Shown piece by piece: positions 11,821-64,000 of a stretch of 64,000 nucleotides of DNA. Below the pieces are notes generated by a model that saw only the letters and a program-made list of their open reading frames with translations, searched no databases and had not been told where the DNA came from. Position numbers and translations under genes: made by a program. The first letter of the stretch is position 1; each line of letters begins with the position of its first letter. The stretch lies in contig CBDEGZ010000003.1 in NCBI GenBank assembly GCA_965238175.1, forward strand, positions 1,024,001-1,088,000, written 5' to 3'. This DNA comes from Gammaproteobacteria bacterium (lineage in GTDB: Bacteria > Pseudomonadota > Gammaproteobacteria > CAJXQU01).

Positions 11821-13773
11821 GTGATTAATTTAATAAGAAGTGTGAAACCAACAAAATATAGAGCGATTAGTTTTCTCAGCTTTATATTATTTTATTCCAT
11901 TAATGTAAATAGTGCGGATTCGGTTCAGACATCTATTTCAGATAAATTGCTAGAAACCAGTTACGAAGGCACACTGGTTATCTATAGCCATGTGCGTACG
12001 GGGCAAAAGCTCGATGGCAGCTATAAGATCATTAATAATCGAGGCCATATAATCGCTTCATTTCGAGATGGAGTGGCTGATGGTAGTTGGGAGCATTACA
12101 ACTCTCAACGTATCCTCACAGAGAAACGTAATTACCTTAATGGTAAGCTCGACGGAGAGCTTTTACGTTTTACTTCAAGTGGCAAGCAAGCCGAGTTAGA
12201 ACGTTATGAAAATGGTGTACCCTCTGGAACATGGAAAAAATACGCGCACAGTGGTGGGGTGATTGAAGTAACGGCTTACAATGATGGTATTAAGACACTT
12301 GTCGAAAAGTTTTATACCGATGGTCAGAAAAAGACGATAGAAACGTATGTGGATAATCTCAAACAAGGCTCCTGGCAAAGTTTTTATCCCGATGGCACTT
12401 TGGAAATTGAACAAACTTATGCCAACGATGTACTCAATGGCCCGTACACGGAATACTACCGTTCTGGTGAGAAAAAACTTGAAGGAGAAATCAATGAAGC
12501 TGGGTATCGTAGTGGTGTTTGGAACAAATACTTCGATACCGGGAAAATCCAAAAAACCCGTTATTACTTGGATGGAAGAGAGCAGGGGCCTTCCATCTCG
12601 TTTTATGAAAATGGACAGGAAAAACGGGCTTGTCAATTAAACGAGAAGCGTACAGAAGGCAGTTGTAAAAGCTATGATGACACAGGGCGTCTACTAGAAG
12701 AGTGGTCAATTAAGGGCAATAAATATGAGGGTATCTTTCGATCGTTTTATGAAAATGGTGATCCAAAACTCGTTTCTAACTATAAGAGCGGAAAGAAGTC
12801 AGGAAAGCAGGAATTCTATAACGAAAACGGTATTCTAATACGACGCGAACATTACAGTGAGCAAGCCAATGAGAGTGGGGAATTTTCTCAAGATGGAAAC
12901 TATGAAAGCTTTTATAGCAATGGTGATCCTCAGGAACAGGGACAATATGCGAATGGTCGTAAAACGGGTAGCTGGAAGTCATTCAGAGAAGGTCGATTGT
13001 TATCCGAAGAAAATTATCGTAATGGCACTCGGCATGGTAATTATGCAGAGTTTTATGATGGGCGTCGTCGTGTTACAGGTAGTTACATAAATAATAAGCG
13101 TGATGGTCTGTGGCTCCATTACTATTATGAACCTGAATCTCCGACTTTCGGACATATTCAAGAAGGCGTCGTCGCGCGCAAGGAACATTGGCAGAATAAT
13201 AAAAAAAGCGGAGTCTGGGAGTTCTTTACTGTAAAGGATAAACTTTATAAACGGGAGCGCTATGAAAACGGAGAGCTGGCCGGTTTATATGAAGAATTTC
13301 ATGTGGAATCAGGTGTGCCGCTGGTTATTGGTAACTATGTAGAAGGAAGGACGCATGGTAAATGGGAAGTTTTTTATGATGATGGACTGCCTAAATTACA
13401 GGAGAGTTATGACAAAGGCCTTCGTAGTGGTCATTATCAAAGTTTTTATAGTAATGGGCAAATAGAAGTTTCAGGCAAATTTGAAATGGATAAAAAAGCA
13501 GATCAATGGATCACGTATTATCAAAGTGGCAAATTACAAAAAGAAGAACAGTTTGCTAATAACCTGAAAGAAGGACAGTCAAAGTACTACCATCGAAATG
13601 GTCAATTAGAATCCGAAGGTCCCTTTGTGCGAGATCGAAAAGAAGGGGCATGGAAAATGTATTGGCCTAATGGCAAATTGCAGAATGAAGGAAGCTACCT
13701 GCGTGGCAATCAGGCTGGTGATTGGCTTAATTATGATCAAACGGGCAAGCTAATCTCAACACAGCATTATTAA
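11821..13773 (+). CDS. secreted MORN-variant repeat protein (YwqK-like)
   Basis: Signal peptide plus many G-W--YY-NG-L--EG-Y--G repeats; AGGAG RBS before the GTG. Confidence 0.85.
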   Translation: MINLIRSVKPTKYRAISFLSFILFYSINVNSADSVQTSISDKLLETSYEGTLVIYSHVRTGQKLDGSYKIINNRGHIIASFRDGVADGSWEHYNSQRILTEKRNYLNGKLDGELLRFTSSGKQAELERYENGVPSGTWKKYAHSGGVIEVTAYNDGIKTLVEKFYTDGQKKTIETYVDNLKQGSWQSFYPDGTLEIEQTYANDVLNGPYTEYYRSGEKKLEGEINEAGYRSGVWNKYFDTGKIQKTRYYLDGREQGPSISFYENGQEKRACQLNEKRTEGSCKSYDDTGRLLEEWSIKGNKYEGIFRSFYENGDPKLVSNYKSGKKSGKQEFYNENGILIRREHYSEQANESGEFSQDGNYESFYSNGDPQEQGQYANGRKTGSWKSFREGRLLSEENYRNGTRHGNYAEFYDGRRRVTGSYINNKRDGLWLHYYYEPESPTFGHIQEGVVARKEHWQNNKKSGVWEFFTVKDKLYKRERYENGELAGLYEEFHVESGVPLVIGNYVEGRTHGKWEVFYDDGLPKLQESYDKGLRSGHYQSFYSNGQIEVSGKFEMDKKADQWITYYQSGKLQKEEQFANNLKEGQSKYYHRNGQLESEGPFVRDRKEGAWKMYWPNGKLQNEGSYLRGNQAGDWLNYDQTGKLISTQHY

Positions 13774-55781: not shown

Positions 55782-56339
55782 ATGCTAAGAGAATCAAAAA
55801 GTCTAATCAAGGACGTAACTCAAGAATTGAACAAAGATCAAATTCAGCCAACGCTGAAAGGTGCTACCTCAGAACGTTCAAATCAATGGAAACCAAATGT
55901 GACGGTTGCTGCCATTATTGAACGCGGTGGTAAGTTCATGATGATAGAGGAATTTTCACAAGGTAAGTTGGTATTCAATCAACCTGCTGGCCATTTAGAA
56001 GAAGGTGAGAGCCTACTACAGGCGGTGGAAAGGGAAGTGCGTGAAGAAACCGCCTGGGGGTTTAAACCAGAAAAAGTGATCGGTCTTTATATGTATCCTT
56101 CACCAGCAAACGACATTACTTACTTACGTGTCTGTTTTACAGGTAGCTGTCATGATCATAAACCAGAATTACCCTTGGACGATGGTATCTACCGGGTTCA
56201 TTGGATGACTGTAGAGGAAATTCGGAAAAATATAGGACGGCTACGTTGCTCGATGACCTTAACCTGTATTGATGATTATCTTGCAGGGAACCAGTTTCCG
56301 TTAGAATATTTACATAACCAGCTTTCTTCGCGCTCATAG
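55782..56339 (+). CDS. nudJ: NUDIX hydrolase (NudJ-like)
   Basis: WKPNVTVAA, NQPAGHLE-GE, REVREET; start uncertain. Confidence 0.8.
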   Translation: MLRESKSLIKDVTQELNKDQIQPTLKGATSERSNQWKPNVTVAAIIERGGKFMMIEEFSQGKLVFNQPAGHLEEGESLLQAVEREVREETAWGFKPEKVIGLYMYPSPANDITYLRVCFTGSCHDHKPELPLDDGIYRVHWMTVEEIRKNIGRLRCSMTLTCIDDYLAGNQFPLEYLHNQLSSRS

Positions 56340-56524
56340 ACAAACTCACGCATGGCAAGACTTATCAGAGCCACGATCACGTTAGGGCAGATGTATTCAG
56401 GTATACCGACATAATTTATAATCGGCAGCGATTCCATCAAACATTAAACTATGTCTCACCGACAGAGTATGAAATGATGAGAGCTGTTTAATTTAGCTGC
56501 CTGCGTGGATATTAGTACACTTCA
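56321..56524 (+). pseudogene. IS3-family 3' relic (transposase C-terminus and right end)
   Basis: Reads AFFALIDKLTHGKTYQSHDHVRADVFRYTDIIYNRQRFHQTLNYVSPTEYE; ends in CA. Confidence 0.75.
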
Positions 56525-56564
56525 TATACCCCCATCTGAGGTCATGAAATATCAACTGCTAAGG

Positions 56565-57790
56565 TGTAGAAATTCAGATTTGATCTGACAGTTACCCAAT
56601 TATCAGTAACCGACTGTCAGGTTAAGTTTAATTCACAAACTTTTCCTTCCAGATAGCTTGTCCGTCGATGAGTGTTTCCATCGGCGTCCTCCCGCAGCAC
56701 ATTTTGCCTTGGTGAGTTCGTTGAGTATTGTATTTGAGCAACCATTCGTCAAGGTCGAGTTGCAGTTCATCAATCGATTGGTAAATTTTCTTACGCAAAG
56801 CGACTTGATAAAACTCATTGAGGATCGTCTTATGGAATCGCTCACAAATACCATTCGTCTGAGGTGATTTGACCTTGGTTTTGGTGTGTTCGATATTGTT
56901 CAACGCCATATAAAGCTGATAATCATGCTGGTCAGCTCGCCCACAATACTCCGTCCCTCTATCTGTCAAAATGCGCAACATAGGCAAACGTTGTTGTTCG
57001 TAGAATGGGAGGACGCGGTCATTGAGCATGTCAGCTGCCGTAATCGGTGTTTTAGTCGGGTACAGTTTCGCGTGAGCGACCTTGCTGTAAGTATCAACAA
57101 ACGTTTGTTGATAAACCCGACCAATGCCTTTGAAAGTACCGACATAGTAAGTATCTTGCGAGCCAAGATAACCAGGGTGTGCCGTTTCTATCTCGCCACA
57201 AGCCTCATCGTCGTCTTTTTTGCGTTCCATCGCCGCGACTTGAGACTCAGTGAGGATCAAGCCTTCACCAGCTACCTTATCAGACAATGCCTTCAGGCGA
57301 TCTTTAAAGCAAGCAAGACCATGACGAAGCCAGATACAACGAACGCCACTGGGTGAGACAAATGTTCCCCGTTTGCGCAGCTCGTTACTGGTGCGCGTTT
57401 GACCATGTGCGGGCTCTTCCAGTGCATACTCGAGCACAACGGTTTCAATAGCCGGGTCGATTCTGTTTTTAAGATTTGGGGTACGCCGATTACGATCAAA
57501 CAAGGCTTCTACACCGCCTTCATCAGCCGCTTCTTTGTAGCGATAAAATGTATCTCTGGACAAACCCATCATCTTGCAGGCTTTTGAGACATTGCCGAGT
57601 TCTTCAGCGAGATTGAGTAGACCAACTTTATGTTTTATAACTTTGTCATTAGTATGAATCATGAGAGTTACCTCTTTGTGTTTTGATGTTTACGTTGCAG
57701 TTACATCAAAGCGGGTAACTCTCACTAAATCAAGCGTCGCTACGCTCCGCTTGATTTAGTGATGTGTCAGATTGGGTCTAAACTTCTACA
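56565..57790 (-). mobile_element. IS481-family element, copy 3
   Basis: Same ends as copy 1; direct repeat GCTAAGG on both sides. Confidence 0.95.
56628..57662 (-). CDS. IS481-family transposase
   Basis: Identical protein to copy 1. Confidence 0.95.
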   Translation of the reverse strand: MIHTNDKVIKHKVGLLNLAEELGNVSKACKMMGLSRDTFYRYKEAADEGGVEALFDRNRRTPNLKNRIDPAIETVVLEYALEEPAHGQTRTSNELRKRGTFVSPSGVRCIWLRHGLACFKDRLKALSDKVAGEGLILTESQVAAMERKKDDDEACGEIETAHPGYLGSQDTYYVGTFKGIGRVYQQTFVDTYSKVAHAKLYPTKTPITAADMLNDRVLPFYEQQRLPMLRILTDRGTEYCGRADQHDYQLYMALNNIEHTKTKVKSPQTNGICERFHKTILNEFYQVALRKKIYQSIDELQLDLDEWLLKYNTQRTHQGKMCCGRTPMETLIDGQAIWKEKFVN

Positions 57791-57821
57791 GCTAAGGATT
57801 AGAGTACAAATGCGTAATAAT

Positions 57822-58020
57822 GTTGCACAACGTTTCGACTATGGTTAGTACGGGATTATAAAGGCGATAACTTTTCGATTAAGCACTTAGTCAAAACTTT
57901 CTATTTTATTTTTTCAATTATAAAAGCCAAATCCACTAAGACTTAGTGAACCTTGTTAAAAGCTCTTAATTTCAGGTTAAGCACAAACCCATATTAATTC
58001 TGGCCCTTGTTAACACTAGT
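57822..58020 (-). repeat. attC-like cassette recombination site (long, degenerate)
   Basis: On the minus strand starts GTGTTAAC just after the ankyrin stop and ends GTTGTGCAAC; imperfect outer palindrome. Confidence 0.65.
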
Positions 58021-58028
58021 GTATGTTG

Positions 58029-59087
58029 TCATTCAAATATTTTATCAATTTGTTTAGATGGATTTTCAAAAAACTCTTTAATGTTACATAATTCTTTAAA
58101 TTCTTCGTGTTCATAGTCAGCAGAAGCAAAACATTTTTTCTTTGGATACCACACTAAAAACCCCTCGGAACTGTAATTATCAACTTCACTTAATAAGTCT
58201 AGAAATTTATATTTATTCCATTTTACTTCTTTAATATTGATTAGTGAGTTGAAAATTATATAATCTAATTGATTATTTTCTTTGCATTCTATTTTGCGAT
58301 TTTTACTTCGAATTAATTCTATTAATTGTTTTGGTAATTTGTAGCTTTTTAAATCCGTTAATTTTTGTTCTTCGTTATGCCATTGTTCTGGTTCTAATGA
58401 TTTTATAAACGCTATCATTTTTTTATTCTTATTGGCAACAGCACAGTTATATGGTCTTTCTCCATATTTGTCTTTAACCTTTACATCTGCGCCTTTTTGA
58501 ACTAAAAGCTTTACGGTTTCTAAATCATTGTTTTGTGCAGCAATATGCACAGGCGTTGAGTTGCAAGGATAAACCATATCAGGTTTGCAGAAATTTACGT
58601 CAATGCCATAATTTAAAAATATTTTTACGGCATCATGCTGTTTATTTGATACAGCTTGTCTAAATGAATCGCCATCATTTTTTAAGTCATAACCATTCTC
58701 AATTAATAATGAAATTGCGTCGAAGTTATTTCCATATAAAGCATCATTCATTGCTGTCTTACCATTACTGTGTTTAGCATTTACTTTTGCTCCATTTTCT
58801 ATTAGCAGCTTGATAGTTTCCATATCACAGCTTGAACAGGCCATTAGAATTGAAGGGTTGTCTTTGTCATTTAACTCAACTTTTTTTAAAATTAACCATT
58901 CTATTACTTTCTTCTTATTTTCATAAAGAGCAAGTGTAATTGGCAGCTCATCTATATACTCAGCAATGTTAAAGATTGCGTTTATATTCAATCCATTTGA
59001 AAACTCATGTTCCAATTTTTCAATGTTTTCTGACATTATTAATTCAGCTAATTCTGTTAATTTATCTTTTGGTCCGAATAATTTCAT
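58029..59087 (-). CDS. ankyrin-repeat protein (cassette cargo)
   Basis: Several LLIENGA-VN, TPVHIAA and LLVQKGADV ankyrin repeats; AT-rich. Confidence 0.9.
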   Translation of the reverse strand: MKLFGPKDKLTELAELIMSENIEKLEHEFSNGLNINAIFNIAEYIDELPITLALYENKKKVIEWLILKKVELNDKDNPSILMACSSCDMETIKLLIENGAKVNAKHSNGKTAMNDALYGNNFDAISLLIENGYDLKNDGDSFRQAVSNKQHDAVKIFLNYGIDVNFCKPDMVYPCNSTPVHIAAQNNDLETVKLLVQKGADVKVKDKYGERPYNCAVANKNKKMIAFIKSLEPEQWHNEEQKLTDLKSYKLPKQLIELIRSKNRKIECKENNQLDYIIFNSLINIKEVKWNKYKFLDLLSEVDNYSSEGFLVWYPKKKCFASADYEHEEFKELCNIKEFFENPSKQIDKIFE

Positions 59088-59115
59088 TTTATTGTTTATA
59101 GTTGGTTTTTTCGAT

Positions 59116-59232
59116 ATTACTGCTAACGTTTGTATAAGATTAGTTGCGTTATTTAAGTAATTAATTTAGCCAATACAAACCAAATAGAAAACCCGCGAGG
59201 ATTTCCGTAAGTAGGTTTGCACTAGCAATTAA
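59116..59232 (-). repeat. attC-like site, truncated at the gene-proximal end
   Basis: Shares GTTTGTATAAGATTAGTTGCGTT and GCAATTAA with 61189-61257; the arm carrying R'' is missing. Confidence 0.75.
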
Positions 59233-60134
59233 CTTTCCCAATAGTCAGATTCAATTCCCATATTTCTTAATTCTTGCATGACATTTTCATCCGCATAGCT
59301 AAAAAAAGCTTTTTTTAAATTTGGAAAATGAATAGCATCCATTGAGCTTTCTATATTGTCATAATCTTCATAACCTTCTATAAATAGAATTAAATTTTTG
59401 TAAATTCCACTAATACCATCTTGATTTATCTCTGTGATTTCTTTTGCCAAACGTTTTGGAACAGGTAGTTTTTTAAAGTATTCGACAACTTCAGGAATTA
59501 AATCATACCCTTCTTCTTCTAAGTCTATTAATCTATTTTCGTAAAGCTTAACAAATTCATTTAAATCAAATTTTGGCTTTAAAAACTCCTTGTTATACAT
59601 TAACTCATTAATAACTGCATATTTAAAATTGATATCCGCAAACTCAATTATATCTTCATTAGTTGGCTTTATTTCATATTTATCTTTTGGAGGAAGTGGG
59701 GTATTACAATTAGAAATAGATAACTCGACTATATTATTTTTATCGTCGTTTAACGTATAATATATTTGAAGGGTTTTGGTTTGTTCGGTAAGTCTTAAGC
59801 GTCTTTCATGAATATTTTCACCTATTATAGCCAATATCCCTTGATATACTTTTTTGGGCATAAAATCAAACTCATAACTCTTATCTTTTCTTATCAAGAT
59901 ATCAACTTCTTCAATTCTTTTTTTACCCTTAGAATAGCAATATATTCCCAAATCATCCCAAGTATATATTGTATTGGAAGAACCTTTAAAAAGACGATTA
60001 ATAAAATTAGGTTTATTAATGCGATTAGGGCTTTGTTTTAACTCTTCAACGAGTTTTTTCAGAGATATTGGAAAGGTTAAGAGGGTTGAATTAATACTCA
60101 GTCCTTTATCTGTCAACTCTATTTTAAAATTCAT
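59229..60134 (-). CDS. hypothetical two-domain protein, immunity-protein-like (cassette cargo)
   Basis: IYTWDDLGI N-terminal motif and F-D-NFK-AVI-ELMY C-terminal motif; probable start ATG 60134. Confidence 0.7.
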   Translation of the reverse strand: MNFKIELTDKGLSINSTLLTFPISLKKLVEELKQSPNRINKPNFINRLFKGSSNTIYTWDDLGIYCYSKGKKRIEEVDILIRKDKSYEFDFMPKKVYQGILAIIGENIHERRLRLTEQTKTLQIYYTLNDDKNNIVELSISNCNTPLPPKDKYEIKPTNEDIIEFADINFKYAVINELMYNKEFLKPKFDLNEFVKLYENRLIDLEEEGYDLIPEVVEYFKKLPVPKRLAKEITEINQDGISGIYKNLILFIEGYEDYDNIESSMDAIHFPNLKKAFFSYADENVMQELRNMGIESDYWES

Positions 60135-60145
60135 TTTTATTCCCA

Positions 60146-60326
60146 TTGCCCACAACGGTTTGTGTATGAAATATAGGGGGTAAAAGACGCTGACTTTTCA
60201 TATTTTATTTTTAACTTATCAATCTTAAAAGCCATTCACCTTAGGCGGGTCGGTGATTTTCGCAAATAAGAATAAACCCTTCTGAAAGCCTTTGCTAGCT
60301 ATGTTTTATACACCTTGGTTAGGCAA
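60146..60326 (-). repeat. attC-like cassette recombination site
   Basis: Minus strand GCCTAAC...GTGTATAAAACATAG ... CTATATTTCATACAC...GTTGTGGGC; arms pair 13/15. Confidence 0.75.
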
Positions 60327-60329
60327 AGT

Positions 60330-61178
60330 TTAATAATTCTCTGGTTTTTTACTTGGATTTTCACAAAACCAATTATACATATCATTGAATTTTTTTTCAT
60401 ATTTCTTTATTTTCTCTTCGTCCGTTTTTGACTGTAAGAAAGGTTTGCGTTTACCTACAATAATAGTGTCTTTAGCTCCTTCAATAATAGGATCTACACT
60501 CATAAAAGCTTCTAATTGTTTACAATCGACTTCTTTACCATTTATTTTAAACTGTGCTTTTAGCCAAGCAATTTGTTCTGTTGTGAATTGATTTTCCGCA
60601 AATGTTATTTTTTTTATTTTCTTTAAATCTTTAAGAGGAGAAATATCTTTATCAATAATATTTGAATAGAACATAAACTCTTCTAAATTTTCGCATCCTA
60701 TAAAAGGTCTTAGAGATTTTATTTTGTTATCAATATTAAAAGTATTATTGTCAATAACTCTTATATATTTTAACAATTTCCCGTTTTCAATTTGGCCAAA
60801 GTCTGATAATTTTTTGATAGAATTAATTTTAAGAGACTTTAACTTTAGAGTTTTGGAAAAATCCCAAAGATTTTCTGCTTTTTGATTCCAAAAAATCTCT
60901 ACAGATTCAATATTAGAAAGTTCTTCCATTTTAGAAAAATCTTTTACTCGTTTACAAGCTTTAAAACTTATTACTGTGAATGTATGCGCATAATTTTCTA
61001 TAAAGTAATTAAACAAATTTTGGTCTAAACCAGCAATACTTAGCTTCTTTATTTTAGGGTATTTCTGAATCTCATCTATTAAAGATTTTCTACTCTTTGG
61101 CCATAAAGGACCTTTCTCTTCATATGGTAGTATATGAAGTTCATCATCTATTAATCTGACTTCTTGTGAAATGCTCAT
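60330..61178 (-). CDS. leucine-rich-repeat protein (cassette cargo)
   Basis: LxxLxxLxI repeats, IFWNQK, DISPLKDLKKIK. Confidence 0.8.
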   Translation of the reverse strand: MSISQEVRLIDDELHILPYEEKGPLWPKSRKSLIDEIQKYPKIKKLSIAGLDQNLFNYFIENYAHTFTVISFKACKRVKDFSKMEELSNIESVEIFWNQKAENLWDFSKTLKLKSLKINSIKKLSDFGQIENGKLLKYIRVIDNNTFNIDNKIKSLRPFIGCENLEEFMFYSNIIDKDISPLKDLKKIKKITFAENQFTTEQIAWLKAQFKINGKEVDCKQLEAFMSVDPIIEGAKDTIIVGKRKPFLQSKTDEEKIKKYEKKFNDMYNWFCENPSKKPENY

Positions 61179-61188
61179 TTAAATCAAA

Positions 61189-61257
61189 TTTACCCTGACG
61201 GTTTGTATAAGATTAGTTGCGTTGTTTAAGCAATTAATTTTATACGTTGTTGTAAAA
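61189..61257 (-). repeat. short attC-like site
   Basis: GTATAAGATTAGTTGC / GCAATTAATTTTATAC hairpin flanked by core sites. Confidence 0.75.
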
Positions 61258-61889
61258 CGCTACTTTATTATTTATTAAATTTTACTTTGACTCATTTTTT
61301 TATTCTTTGGGAAATTCCCATTTTAAAATTTCTGTTCGAGGTATATCATTAATAGAAAACCATTTTAAAATTTCCATACTGGCTTTATCTATTTTAACCT
61401 CAACATAAACAGTTATTCTGCTTTTGAACGCTTCCATACTAATCCCATTACCATAAGTTAACTCACTCATTTTGAATCGAACAAGACGATCAGCTCTATT
61501 TAATTCTTTAGATAATTGAGAGGGTTTTATTTCATAGTGTGTGCCTTTCCAAATAATAATATCTCCAAAATATTTTACCTTAATTTGCTTGGTTTTCCCT
61601 TGATAGCTATTTATAAAGTAGGGTTCTTTAAAGAATACATTGTCAGCATCTACTAAAGAGTAGATTGCATTTTCATCATTGCTGCTATGCCTTACAGACA
61701 TAGACCACGTATCAAACGTAAATTCCTCGAAAGGTTCGGAAGGTACTTCGTGTGCAACAAACCATCTAGGTTTAGAGGCAAAAAATAGTGTCTTTTCGGA
61801 TTTTCCATCTATTAATAAAGACACACTGAACCTGCTACATTTTAACGGATACATTAAATAGGCGACAATATGCCTTTAGGAGTATCCAA

Positions 61890-62201
61890 ATGACCAGCAA
61901 CAGAAAACCATACAAAACCTATACCCGAGAATTCAAACTAGAAGCGTTACGCTTGATGGAGCAATCAGATAAACCGTCATCTGAGATTGCCGCTGAACTT
62001 GGTATACGGCGTAATCAGCTCTATAAATGGAAAGAACAACTGACCGACAAAGGTGATACTGCATTCCCAGAACAACGTGGAAGGCCTAAGAAAGAAGCAC
62101 AAAGTGAACTCACCACCTTACGCCAAGATAATGCACGGCTGAAGGAGGAAGTTGAGATATTAAAAAAGGCCGCGGTGTACTTTGCAGGCGAACTCAAGTG
62201 A
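61890..62201 (+). CDS. IS3 transposase OrfA
   Basis: YTREFKLEA, HTH, EILKKA--YFA. Confidence 0.93.
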   Translation: MTSNRKPYKTYTREFKLEALRLMEQSDKPSSEIAAELGIRRNQLYKWKEQLTDKGDTAFPEQRGRPKKEAQSELTTLRQDNARLKEEVEILKKAAVYFAGELK

Positions 62202-63058
62202 AGTACGCCTTTATTAAAATACAACGTCGCCATCACTCTGTGTCGTTATTATGTCGCACCCTGACTGTCTCAGTCAGTGGTTATTATGATTGGTTAGACA
62301 GGCCTCAAAGTAAGACACACTCAACGAATCAACGGTTACTGACGAAAATAAGATGTTTTCATCAAGCTAGTTTTAAGCGTTATGGTTCACCTCGGATACA
62401 TCGAGACCTACTCGATTCAGGTGAAAAAGTAAGTCGACCGCGTGTTGCACGTTTGATGAAGACTGCTGGCATTCAATCGAAGATGGCCAAACGGTTTGTG
62501 ATTACAACCAATTCAAAAAATACCACAGCACCTGCACCCGATAGGCTCAAACGTGAATTTCGTGTCAATGAAACAAATAAAGCCTGGGTAGCTGACACGA
62601 CCTTTATTCGTACTCGGCAAGGTTGGTTATATTTGGCTACCATGATGGACTTGTATTCACGGCAAATTATTGGCTGGGCGATGTCTGAGCGTAATGACAC
62701 CAAGCTAGTCACTGATGCGTTAACGATGTCGCTGTCACGCAGAGACAAGGCAAAAGATGTGATTGTCCATTCCGACCAAGGCAGCACTTATGCCTCGGGT
62801 GATTATCGAAAGCTCATTAAAGATAATGGCTTCCTTTGTAGTATGAGCCGAAAAGGTGAATGCCATGATAATGCGGTCGCTGAAAGTTTCTTCGGCAGCC
62901 TCAAAACAGAGTTGGTTGATGATGAGGATTATCGAACACGTAGCGATGCCAAACAAAGCCTATTTCACTATATTGAAGTGTTTTATAATCGAAGACGGAG
63001 GCATTCTTATTTAGGCTATGTTAGCCCTGTAGAATTTGAGCGGGCAAATGCCCCTTAG
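62198..63058 (+). CDS. IS3 transposase OrfB (DDE)
   Basis: YGSPRI, WVADTT, HSDQGS-Y, DNAVAESFF. Confidence 0.95.
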   Translation: MKYAFIKIQRRHHSVSLLCRTLTVSVSGYYDWLDRPQSKTHSTNQRLLTKIRCFHQASFKRYGSPRIHRDLLDSGEKVSRPRVARLMKTAGIQSKMAKRFVITTNSKNTTAPAPDRLKREFRVNETNKAWVADTTFIRTRQGWLYLATMMDLYSRQIIGWAMSERNDTKLVTDALTMSLSRRDKAKDVIVHSDQGSTYASGDYRKLIKDNGFLCSMSRKGECHDNAVAESFFGSLKTELVDDEDYRTRSDAKQSLFHYIEVFYNRRRRHSYLGYVSPVEFERANAP

Positions 63059-63388
63059 TTATTTGCTCCGTTAAAGTGTTGCAACCTCACACTGTGTTTT
63101 TTTCTAATAGGGCTACTTTGTGTTGTTTTAAATCTATATTTTTTAGCAGGCGTACTTTGTCAAAACTGGTTAGGTTTTGACAGGAAGCCAACAATAATAC
63201 GAGTAATAAATACCAGGCAGGTTGCCTTATATGGTTTCATTTTTTTAGTTATTATCTGTTTTTACTTTAGGACATTTTAAAAGACCTAATAAAAATATTG
63301 TATTATTGATTAAAGAGTCTAATTCCTGTTTCTGTGCTTGAATGCTGCTTGTCCAGCATAAAAGTAATAAAGAGTTTTCTTTATCATA

Positions 63389-63439
63389 TTTTACAACCGT
63401 TTGTGTATGAAATATAGTGTGTAAAAGGTGCTAACTTTT
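63389..63439 (-). repeat. half attC-like site
   Basis: ACAACCGTTTGTGTATGAAATATAG...TAAAAG..GCT.ACTTTT matches 60152-60198. Confidence 0.7.
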
Positions 63440-63524
63440 GAGGGTACACTTGGAATTTGAAACCGTCCAGTAAGCGAAATTAAATCGAGCCTGGACTGAT
63501 CCTGAGGGATCCTGGATCAGGCCC

Positions 63525-63793
63525 TAATTAGAAAAGGTGCTATTATTTATCTTTTTTGCGATTTAGACGATATCATCAGGGAGTATGAAAGTGACTTCCA
63601 TGATCAGCCGCTAACAAAGAAAATCGTAGAGGCGCTGAAAGGTAATCAGCACTCGCCAATTCTTGAGGTGGCTCAGTTGCTAACCCATGTGTCCGTGCCT
63701 GAACCCAAGTTCAACTATTCCGAATACAATAAAATATTGCAGAGTACTTGCATAGAGCATGTTCATCGGTTTTTCGCAGAGAAACTGGCTTAA
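63525..63793 (+). pseudogene. 5'-truncated hypothetical ORF
   Basis: Open frame LIRKGAIIYLFCDLDD...RFFAEKLA* with no start codon. Confidence 0.45.
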
Positions 63794-63819
63794 TGCCATA
63801 ACGTCGTAACCACTCGCAA

Positions 63820-64000
63820 ATGGAGCCAGGTAATATTTTGAAAATAGATACACTTGGTGACGGTTGGCGAGATAAAGACTCGGTGATGTTGCATGCATGC
63901 TTTCAACTATTAAGGGACTGCATCGAAAAAGAACATCTACTAAATGGCCATATTGACTGGGAAGTTGATGAAAAGCACCATCTGGCCAAAAAAGAAATTG
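63820..64000 (+). CDS. hypothetical protein, runs off the window
   Basis: MEPGNILKIDTLGDGWRDKDSVMLHACFQLL..., open to the window edge. Confidence 0.6.
   Translation, partial: MEPGNILKIDTLGDGWRDKDSVMLHACFQLLRDCIEKEHLLNGHIDWEVDEKHHLAKKEI

Follow-up and report, generated by a model that had tools for sequence, protein, structure and literature searches.

The window analysed here is a stretch of 64,000 nucleotides (nt) from a gammaproteobacterial genome of 3.35 Mb (C3:1024001-1088000 of the chromosome, whose guanine-plus-cytosine (GC) content is 40.4%, or 0.404). Between 57.8 and 63.44 kb it holds an island of four co-oriented genes on the - strand, with attC-like sites A-D between them and a truncated site, E, at the head of the series. 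The sites belong to a family that recurs in Flavobacteriaceae, where it is linked to a tyrosine recombinase that the host lacks. From 57.8 to 61.9 kb the GC content drops to 28-32% (0.295, 0.280 and 0.282 in the 1-kb bins over 58001-61000, and 0.322 in the bin 61001-62000), against 0.352-0.456 in the remaining bins of the window. An earlier reading of these letters without database searches (the sequence-only reading) had described a very AT-rich run of co-oriented single genes separated by five palindromic spacers. Its account of composition and gene order stands, and its spacer coordinates agree with the model matches for A, B, C and D given below. The island reads as follows in the direction of the genes; each site is described by its outer 5' and 3' cores and its inner arms, L'' and L'.

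63386-63439, - strand: site E, truncated; L' arm and 3' core GTTGTAAAATAT (63386-63397) only
63090-63385, - strand: 5' untranslated part of cassette 1, bounded by site E (3' core) and an IS3-family insertion sequence (IS)
61300-61826, - strand: cassette gene 1, about 172-175 codons, from the list of open reading frames (ORFs), where it runs over 61300-61854; no Pfam match; start occupied by the IS3-family element
61188-61260, - strand: site D, short-type without variable centre; 5' core GCGTTTTACAAC (61249-61260), 16-bp L stem, 3' core GTCAGGGTAAAT (61188-61199)
60330-61178, - strand: cassette gene 2, leucine-rich-repeat (LRR) protein of 282 amino acids (aa); Pfam LRR match weak and under the cut-off
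60145-60329, - strand: site C, long-type; 5' core ACTTTGCCTAAC (60318-60329), 3' core GTTGTGGGCAAT (60145-60156)
59229-60134, - strand: cassette gene 3, DUF7738 and DUF6892 protein of 301 aa from ATG (ORF of 308 aa from TTG); Pfam 1e-40 and 4.6e-21
59116-59255, - strand: site B, short-type, degenerate; 3' core GTTAGCAGTAAT (59116-59127)
58029-59087, - strand: cassette gene 4, ankyrin-repeat protein of 352 aa; Pfam Ank_2 7e-27 and related families
57820-58020, - strand: site A, long-type; 5' core ACTAGTGTTAAC (58009-58020), 3' core GTTGTGCAACAT (57820-57831)

Two pairs of spacers share sequence, as had been noticed: 59128-59167 (in B) and 61201-61240 (in D) are 95% identical over 40 nt, and 60152-60198 (in C) and 63393-63439 (in E) are 87% identical over 47 nt. 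Beyond these repeat pairs, neither a 23-mer core (up to 4 substitutions) nor an exact 19-mer core occurs anywhere in the 3.35-Mb genome, and Rfam has no relevant family in this region of the window or in a flavobacterial array. The attC geometry R''(..AAC)-L''...L'-R'(GTT..) is present in A, C and D, and B lacks R''. The sequence-only reading had every intact spacer begin with ..AAC and end with GTT. Sites A, C and D open with ..AAC directly behind the stop codon, and A and C close with GTT, but D ends with GTC. At B the model alignment gives ..GAC, inside the end of the upstream ORF, so that the claim does not hold there. What remains of site B is the 3' core, the L' arm, the inner L'' arm and a centre that contains a terminator-like hairpin (59187-59206); where the outer L'' arm and 5' core would be, the end of the upstream ORF stands instead. 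The stretch GTGCAAAC was considered as the 5' core of B and dropped, since alignment to flavobacterial elements puts it in the variable centre. Site E, which had been listed as a fifth spacer, is a C-like repeat, but only its 3' third (about 55 nt) is there. Upstream of 63439 nothing aligns to C or to flavobacterial long elements, and the covariance model described below gives no significant match to E (5.3 bits, E 0.4). The array is thus broken off at about 63440: its head in the window is a half site, with no attI-like junction.

The resemblance of the spacers to repeats of marine Flavobacteria rather than to proteobacterial attC sites had been suggested, and it is borne out by database comparison. 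Short-word BLAST of the five spacers against genomic loci encoding DUF6892 proteins gave intergenic matches in Postechiella marina, Formosa algae, Maribacter and Flagellimonas. The matched loci consist of co-oriented genes with elements of 140 and 205 nt between them, laid out as the window spacers are. From 20 such elements (14 short, 6 long) of P. marina, F. algae and a Maribacter metagenome-assembled genome (MAG), with no window sequence included, we built nhmmer profiles, and from the 14 short elements, in bottom-strand orientation, a covariance model (R1). Searched against the whole host genome, the profiles find B (E 6.2e-22), A (1.4e-15, long profile, match 57822-58019), D (4.9e-5) and C (2.3e-4, long profile). 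R1, the custom covariance model that had been proposed as a check, also finds all four: B with 83.9 bits (E 1.1e-20, outer-stem pairs non-standard), D with 61.7 bits (E 1.6e-14, every modelled pair standard), C with 32.4 bits (E 2.3e-6) and A with 17.3 bits (E 0.037). At the level of letters, blastn-short aligns B to Postechiella and Formosa elements with 82% identity over 112 nt and 89% over 54 nt, the first 30 nt of C are nearly the same as a Postechiella locus (L096:898-927), and the L'' and L' arms of D, GTATAAAATTAATTGC and GCAACTAATCTTATAC, are also present in Postechiella. All R1 matches to the window sites lie on the + strand, opposite the cassette genes, as in the flavobacterial arrays; at 19 flavobacterial loci, 42 of 42 top-strand matches are co-oriented with the gene.

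The family is a common one in Flavobacteriaceae. At E<=1e-5, R1 matches 136 of 151 sampled genomes, often with at least 21 matches per genome, as against 1 of 150 other genomes of the host's class; none of the host's six congeners has a match. Elements of the family do recur between genes elsewhere, as the sequence-only reading had suggested looking for, both in flavobacterial arrays and at three further loci of the host. The single other genome in the host's class (G238) has two elements (C36:3921-4060 and 13330-13467), which lie between long gene runs on a contig of 36.6% GC without a recombinase.

Pairing within the sites is supported by covariation. RNAalifold on the 14 short elements gives an outer 5-bp stem and a 16-bp inner stem (the L stem), with compensatory changes in 12 of 21 pairs. 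At two positions of the inner stem (alignment columns 26-129 and 31-124) 13 and 14 of the 14 elements have a G.U pair, and the same two wobble positions are found in site D and, with one shifted, in site C. These two G.T wobbles are kept even in elements whose surrounding stem sequence is wholly changed. As DNA, site D folds better on the + strand (-8.7 kcal/mol, z -2.7) than on the - strand (-5.1 kcal/mol): the + strand forms a 16-bp stem with two G.T wobbles, where the - strand has A.C mismatches. The L stem is also visible in the + strand fold of C. The spacers had been called palindromic. Folding bears this out for D; for the others the evidence is the covariation of the family, because minimum-energy folding singles out D only. 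A bottom-strand fold had been proposed to reveal extrahelical bases. Site D does fold on the strand in question, but the asymmetry between the strands lies in the two G.T wobbles and in the unequal sides of the internal loops, not in conserved extrahelical bases. It is possible, from these alignments, that the two wobbles signal which strand is used.

Short elements also share a hairpin in their centre, GGAAATCC-TCGC-GGGTTTTC followed by a T run, which in the window stands at 59187-59206 on the - strand. This hairpin may serve as a terminator for the preceding cassette gene, and hints that cassettes are transcribed singly.

A further property ties each site to the gene before it. We compared the 9 positions that follow GTT in the upstream 3' core with the reverse complement of the 5' core of the same cassette. 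Each of the 11 cassettes of the Postechiella array has 6-8 matches among the 9 positions (84/99 in sum), a total reached in none of 20,000 shuffles, and in 11 of 12 cases these cognate values stand against 1-5 of 9 for the two cores of the same element. The cassettes of the window give 6, 6, 4 and 6 of 9 (22/36), compared with 1, 3, 5 and 1 of 9 within the same spacer, and the real order is the single best among all 24 orderings. The window matches are weaker than those of native arrays. The sequence-only reading had said that cores match across each cassette rather than within each spacer; the ordering result agrees with it, but the unit of ORF 59229-60134, whose site B has no 5' core, shows no convincing end-to-end match. 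Matching extends to the recombinase-proximal junction at two of three native loci: the start of the first cassette matches its own far core over 9 contiguous nt in Formosa and 10 in Maribacter, and has no such match in Postechiella. After the recombinase genes of Formosa (L109:8060-8210) and Maribacter (L110, reverse strand) there is an attI-like stretch rich in ATATA(A/C), then the GTT of the first cassette; Postechiella has a comparable ATATAACT stretch, yet no matching first-cassette core.

That a recombinase-cassette system stands behind the spacers had also been proposed. In Flavobacteriaceae the evidence supports this. At all three loci read (Postechiella, L108; Formosa, L109; the Maribacter MAG, L110), a tyrosine recombinase of 368-400 aa is followed by an array on the same strand. 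By coordinates, the recombinase lies upstream of and co-oriented with element matches, within 16 kb, in at least 20 genomes, a lower bound taken from the best 150 of about 1,800 element matches. Homologues at E<=1e-50 are present in 105 of the 151 Flavobacteriaceae. The best NCBIfam model for these recombinases is NF040815 (XerA/integron integrase; 185-228 bits, cut-off 220), and on TIGR02249 they score 177-211 bits, under the cut-off of 265. Aligned with the IntI and Xer proteins of the host, they keep the catalytic R, K, HxxR, H and Y, do not have about 40 IntI-specific residues, and carry an N-terminal extension of 90-150 aa. Homologues also occur in 44 of 101 genomes of the order of one Bacteroidota MAG; this order may not be Bacteroidales, and the count therefore does not link the recombinase to the rAID-1 enzyme of Bacteroidales.

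The host has no orthologue of this recombinase. Its closest proteins are two Xer-like proteins (XerC-like and XerD-like) and an IntI, at 26-29% identity, with one 60-residue stretch of IntI at 45%. As the sequence-only reading had stated, the window contains no integrase: no tyrosine recombinase was found there or in the 12 kb to its right, which hold only IS transposases and core genes. A recombinase beside such arrays, which had been named as a thing to look for, is thus present in Flavobacteriaceae and absent from the host.

The host does carry an integron of its own at C3:2155001-2175916, 1.09 Mb from the window array. Its integrase (C3:2174968-2175916) scores 396.5 bits on TIGR02249, and the array that it heads is at least 17 kb long, with attC sites of the classical kind and tandem IS481 copies at the end. 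Model positions 1-40 of this intI lie in another frame with a TAG, and to judge from that reading frame the gene may be broken at its 5' end. At E<=1, R1 has no match in the 35 kb around the integron, and the flavobacterial profiles have none in its array.

Three more chromosomal loci (C3:2843900-2856200, 1343100-1345000 and 968400-968500) have low-GC co-oriented genes with elements of the family; at the first, IS3 and IS481 copies have such elements around them in either orientation. With the array in the window, the genome holds at least four fragments of this kind. Each of the four lies next to a copy of the IS481-family element; the chromosome has 59 near-full copies of this element at 99-100% identity. 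Three of the loci contain one of the 8 near-full copies of the IS3-family element (100% identity). In the short reads, depth is about 413 for IS481 and about 57 for IS3, as against about 6.6 for unique DNA. The following features border or interrupt the island in the window.

55782-56339: Nudix gene, left flank; its stop codon is abutted by an IS3-family remnant
56340-56490, + strand: remnant of an IS3-family transposase gene, 3' end; left limit of the island, read from the sequence
56568-57790, - strand: IS481-family element; transposase 56628-57662 (Pfam HTH_29, rve, rve_3)
61827-63089, + strand: IS3-family element within cassette 1; orfA 61890-62201, orfB 62198-63058 (Pfam HTH_Tnp_1, rve, rve_2)

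The IS481-family element lies within a 7-bp direct repeat, GCTAAGG, at 56561-56567 and 57791-57797, as had been pointed out, and CAC is found at both sides of the IS3-family element. The cassette expected after site A is cut by the IS3-family remnant. In silico deletion of the intact IS3-family element gives no longer ATG-started frame in cassette 1. At the ends of the IS481-family element (56539-56593 and 57665-57845) Rfam gives two psRNA2 matches that fall short of the gathering score of 65 (23.7 and 18.2 bits) and probably reflect the terminal repeats of the IS. Past site E (63441-64000 and just beyond) are two small + strand ORFs of about 84 and 100 aa, with no Pfam match and with DNA found in none of six congeners. 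Farther right, outside the window, come IS110-like and IS982-like transposases, an IS3 fragment, and then ychF, pth, rplY and prs.

The chromosome around the island is gammaproteobacterial, as the sequence-only reading took it to be: the best named match to YchF, at 94% identity, is labelled 'Gammaproteobacteria bacterium', and the proteins of Pleionea, Kangiellaceae, Methylophaga and others follow at 71-74%. Of conserved synteny of the cargo in gammaproteobacterial relatives, which had been named as a refuting observation, there is no sign in the six congeners, all of which lack the island DNA. The two genes on either side of the accessory stretch, Nudix and ychF, lie at a distance from each other or on separate contigs in five of five congeners, so the island sits at a rearrangement point.

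We read the island as a stranded four-cassette fragment of a Flavobacteriaceae-type integron-like array, horizontally acquired by a gammaproteobacterium without the matching recombinase, and give this a probability of about 80%. Under the proposed mechanism, native arrays would be headed by a recombinase of 370-400 aa in the Xer/IntI clade, without the IntI-specific insert and with an extra N-terminal domain. Each cassette would end in a site of 70-205 nt. On the outside of the site would be a 5' core that ends with AAC, followed after about 3 nt by the 16-nt L'' arm, and a 3' core that starts with GTT, preceded at 5-6 nt by the L' arm; the centre between the two arms would be variable. Folding would favour the strand that is not the coding strand, since two invariant positions form G.T wobbles on it, whereas the coding strand has A.C mismatches at both. 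Cutting and joining would take place at G|TT, which would make roughly the first 10 nt of a cassette complementary to its own distal core. In the window the recombinase machinery is absent and the array would be frozen, with one site that has no 5' core, one halved, and host ISs inserted. The half site E, the degenerate B, the cut cassette after A, the weaker matches and the non-syntenic flanks point to acquisition as a block followed by IS-mediated scattering and decay, rather than to ongoing site-specific capture. Because the matching machinery is absent from the host, the array is most likely frozen and decaying. Transfer would have run from Bacteroidota to the gammaproteobacterium.

Several observations count against this interpretation. 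The minimum-energy folds of A, B and C are no better than those of shuffled sequences, and only D beats its shuffles. No bulged or extrahelical base is conserved in the 16-bp L stem of the 14 aligned elements, where a single extra base occurs in 1 of 14. For the crossover point and for a folded single strand as the substrate, the reading relies on analogy with integrons. Of 80 loci encoding relatives of the DUF6892 protein, 19 have family elements within 10 kb and none has the flavobacterial recombinase within that distance, so this linkage is not universal. The only other holder of the family in the host's class is a MAG (86% complete, 5% contamination), and its element-bearing contig may not be proteobacterial. 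The window sites score at most 88 bits in the host genome, as against 135-152 bits among the flavobacterial matches listed, and the cargo proteins reach at most 45% identity to a relative. No donor can therefore be named from these low scores and identities: either the transfer is an old one or the sampling has missed the donor lineage. The LRR and ankyrin cargo is taxonomically uninformative, and the AlphaFold model of the DUF7738-DUF6892 protein (pLDDT 84) has no PDB match at E<=0.001.

The presence of an integron in the same genome makes two other explanations worth weighing. The island could be a cluster of attC sites lacking integrases (CALIN), for which IntegronFinder asks for at least 2 sites and no integrase within 4 kb, with cassettes captured or shuffled by the host's own IntI and attC sites that are merely AT-rich. 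The integrase and long array of the host are in line with this, as are the AAC...GTT cores and R/L-box geometry of the window sites, and CALINs are common in integron-bearing genomes according to the accessible text of Cury et al. (2016, PMC4889954). However, the sites of the host array form a different sequence family without any R1 match, the window family is that of 136/151 Flavobacteriaceae and 1/150 genomes of the host's class, a cut in the middle of E is not expected from site-specific capture, and the N-terminal part of the host intI is in another frame with a TAG; we consider such an origin quite unlikely. Alternatively, the array could still be active, served in trans by IntI or XerC/D. 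Sites A, C and D are complete, family cassettes sit at four separate host loci, and IntI enzymes have been reported, in the portion of PMC2095811 that is accessible, to accept varied attC sites. Against this, B has no 5' core, breaks or IS remnants truncate both E and the cassette after A, the IntI-linked array has no member of the family, and IS481 copies at all four loci make IS-mediated scattering the simpler account. One contig joint, 59149->61228, links B and D and was examined as a sign of excision; its 22-nt side lies within the repeat shared by these sites, which makes it unusable. Continued activity is unlikely.

The remaining two explanations dispense with cassettes altogether or with the island itself. 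If the spacers were structured repeats with another role (terminators, promoters or miniature mobile elements), the array would be an operon-like cluster. The terminator-like hairpin and T run of the short-type element would fit, as would the DUF6892 loci that have elements (19/80) with no recombinase within 10 kb and the G238 contig, where elements separate long gene runs and not single genes. This view leaves unexplained why cores match at the far end of the cassette (6-8/9 vs 1-5/9, with 0/20,000 shuffles) and why a recombinase stands at the head of arrays, and we hold it to be very unlikely. A chimeric contig, with flavobacterial DNA mis-joined into a gammaproteobacterial one, had been raised by the sequence-only reading as a possible artefact. 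The island is about 11 GC points under the host, it lies between IS copies, where mis-joins can arise, and its Nudix and ychF flanks are non-adjacent in 5/5 congeners. But the cassette contains an IS3 copy flanked by CAC on each side, and 7 other copies are 100% identical to it. The 7-bp target duplication of the IS481 copy means that the DNA to its left and right was continuous before insertion, and three further chromosomal loci have the same element family beside host IS copies. A short-read contig spans 57764-61853 without a difference, another bridges the 63440 boundary with 380 and 560 nt on its two sides, and depth over the island (6.6) is that of the flanks (4.3-6.7); these contigs probably come from the source sample of the assembly and are hence not independent. 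A chimeric assembly is unlikely, and is the least probable of the readings considered here.

The cargo gives a partial view of origin and use. Relatives of the DUF7738-DUF6892 protein are at most 45% identical; of 25 relatives listed with an organism name, 23 are from Bacteroidota, for the most part marine Flavobacteriaceae, and 76 of the 80 genomic loci have Bacteroidota titles. Cargo taxonomy, another proposed check, therefore points to Bacteroidota through this protein. The LRR protein has 22 relatives at up to 42% identity. A profile search of PDB sequences with the DUF7738-DUF6892 protein gave no match, the ankyrin protein matches only generic ankyrin repeats in PDB, and its C-terminal stretch of about 110 aa has no Pfam family. 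Other cassettes of the family, in the host genome and in Postechiella, encode DUF1963, DUF4303, DUF4240, DUF2625, GmrSD_N and an RNase_T-BRCT protein; we take DUF1963 to be an immunity family. By analogy, the cargo most likely encodes immunity or defence proteins, which would be expressed gene by gene.

An attC-like site family with clear cassette boundaries is thus found in about 90% of sampled Flavobacteriaceae and is tied to a recombinase that is not IntI. Sites, strands and crossover point are predictable, and so the mechanism is directly testable. The window suggests that such cassettes can end up in another phylum and persist there without the recombinase as IS-riddled fragments, which bears on the reach of the environmental cassette pool and on the gaps of IntegronFinder-type surveys. 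As a wider lead, a cassette system may extend over the phylum, with a recombinase other than IntI and with strand asymmetry encoded by wobbles. We put forward only tentatively, at somewhat short of even odds, that most Flavobacteriaceae, and probably other Bacteroidota, carry a second, unrecognised integron-like lineage, with a Xer-like integrase, strand choice by G.T wobbles and cassettes that escape the phylum. If so, a cassette system spanning the phylum would have the rAID-1 arrays of gut Bacteroidales as one of its branches, and several phyla would have a mobile cassette pool in common.

Integrons are the textbook cassette-capture system and are thought to be rare in Bacteroidota, and conserved extrahelical bases are a hallmark of their attC sites. 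Like integrons and CALINs, the window and flavobacterial arrays have co-oriented, mostly single-gene cassettes that end in imperfect palindromes, in which the outer cores are AAC...GTT and an inner L stem encloses a variable centre. They share a better fold on the strand opposite the coding strand and a cassette-wise complementarity of cores; the window array is moreover AT-rich relative to its host and has no integrase nearby. Three features that define integrons are not found, namely conserved extrahelical bases, an attI site heading the array, and an IntI that has its insert. The site family is instead tied to a recombinase without the IntI insert that scores under the integron-integrase cut-off. 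In Flavobacteriaceae this recombinase is upstream of and co-oriented with the cassettes, not divergent from them. Strand asymmetry lies in two fixed G.T or A.C positions, and the complementary core is about 10 nt long, not 7. In its accessible text, the IntegronFinder 2.0 report (bioRxiv 10.1101/2022.02.28.482270) gives for Bacteroidetes only In0 elements and one complete integron (Salinibacter), which suggests that flavobacterial-type arrays may escape calling as attC clusters.

The sequence-only reading had called the system poorly described, and the literature agrees. The nearest published system is rAID-1 of gut Bacteroidales (Ross et al. 2019, bioRxiv 10.1101/471110; PMC12247911), of which the accessible text describes short co-directional genes of low GC behind a XerD-like recombinase, which stands at the 5' end; the sequences between the genes are repetitive and 'reminiscent of integrons', and the cargo is made up of orphan immunity genes, SUKH among them. 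Its criteria there are a recombinase at least 44% identical to BF9343_RS08045 of B. fragilis and at least two co-directional downstream genes of 41% GC or lower, it is reported in Bacteroidales only, and the mechanism by which rAIDs are assembled is stated to be unknown (PMC12247911). Flavobacterial arrays, compared by description only, have the same layout in the same phylum. The four co-directional genes of the window, at 28-32% GC, come within the gene criterion of rAID-1; unlike rAID-1, the window has no recombinase and belongs to a different phylum. In the literature searched we found no description of these sites in Flavobacteriaceae, of where their cassettes begin and end, or of their occurrence in Proteobacteria, though one may be in print elsewhere.

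By gene content the island also resembles in part the heterogeneous polyimmunity loci of Zhang et al. (2012, PMC3482391), described in the accessible text as tandem unrelated immunity-type genes, four or more of recognised families, that 'in several cases' adjoin XerC/D recombinases. The ankyrin and LRR proteins of the window belong to classes listed there (Imm-Ank and Imm-LRR), and the DUF7738-DUF6892 protein and cassette gene 1 have no assigned function. The same text covers gene content, suggests a single polycistronic message and, as far as it is accessible, gives no site structure or cassette boundaries. The last comparison is with the host's own integron, which shares with the window its genome, cassettes on one strand, and IS481 and IS3 copies inside the array. 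It differs in having a classical IntI and attC sites of the TAACGCC...GTTA kind, unrelated in sequence to those of the window.

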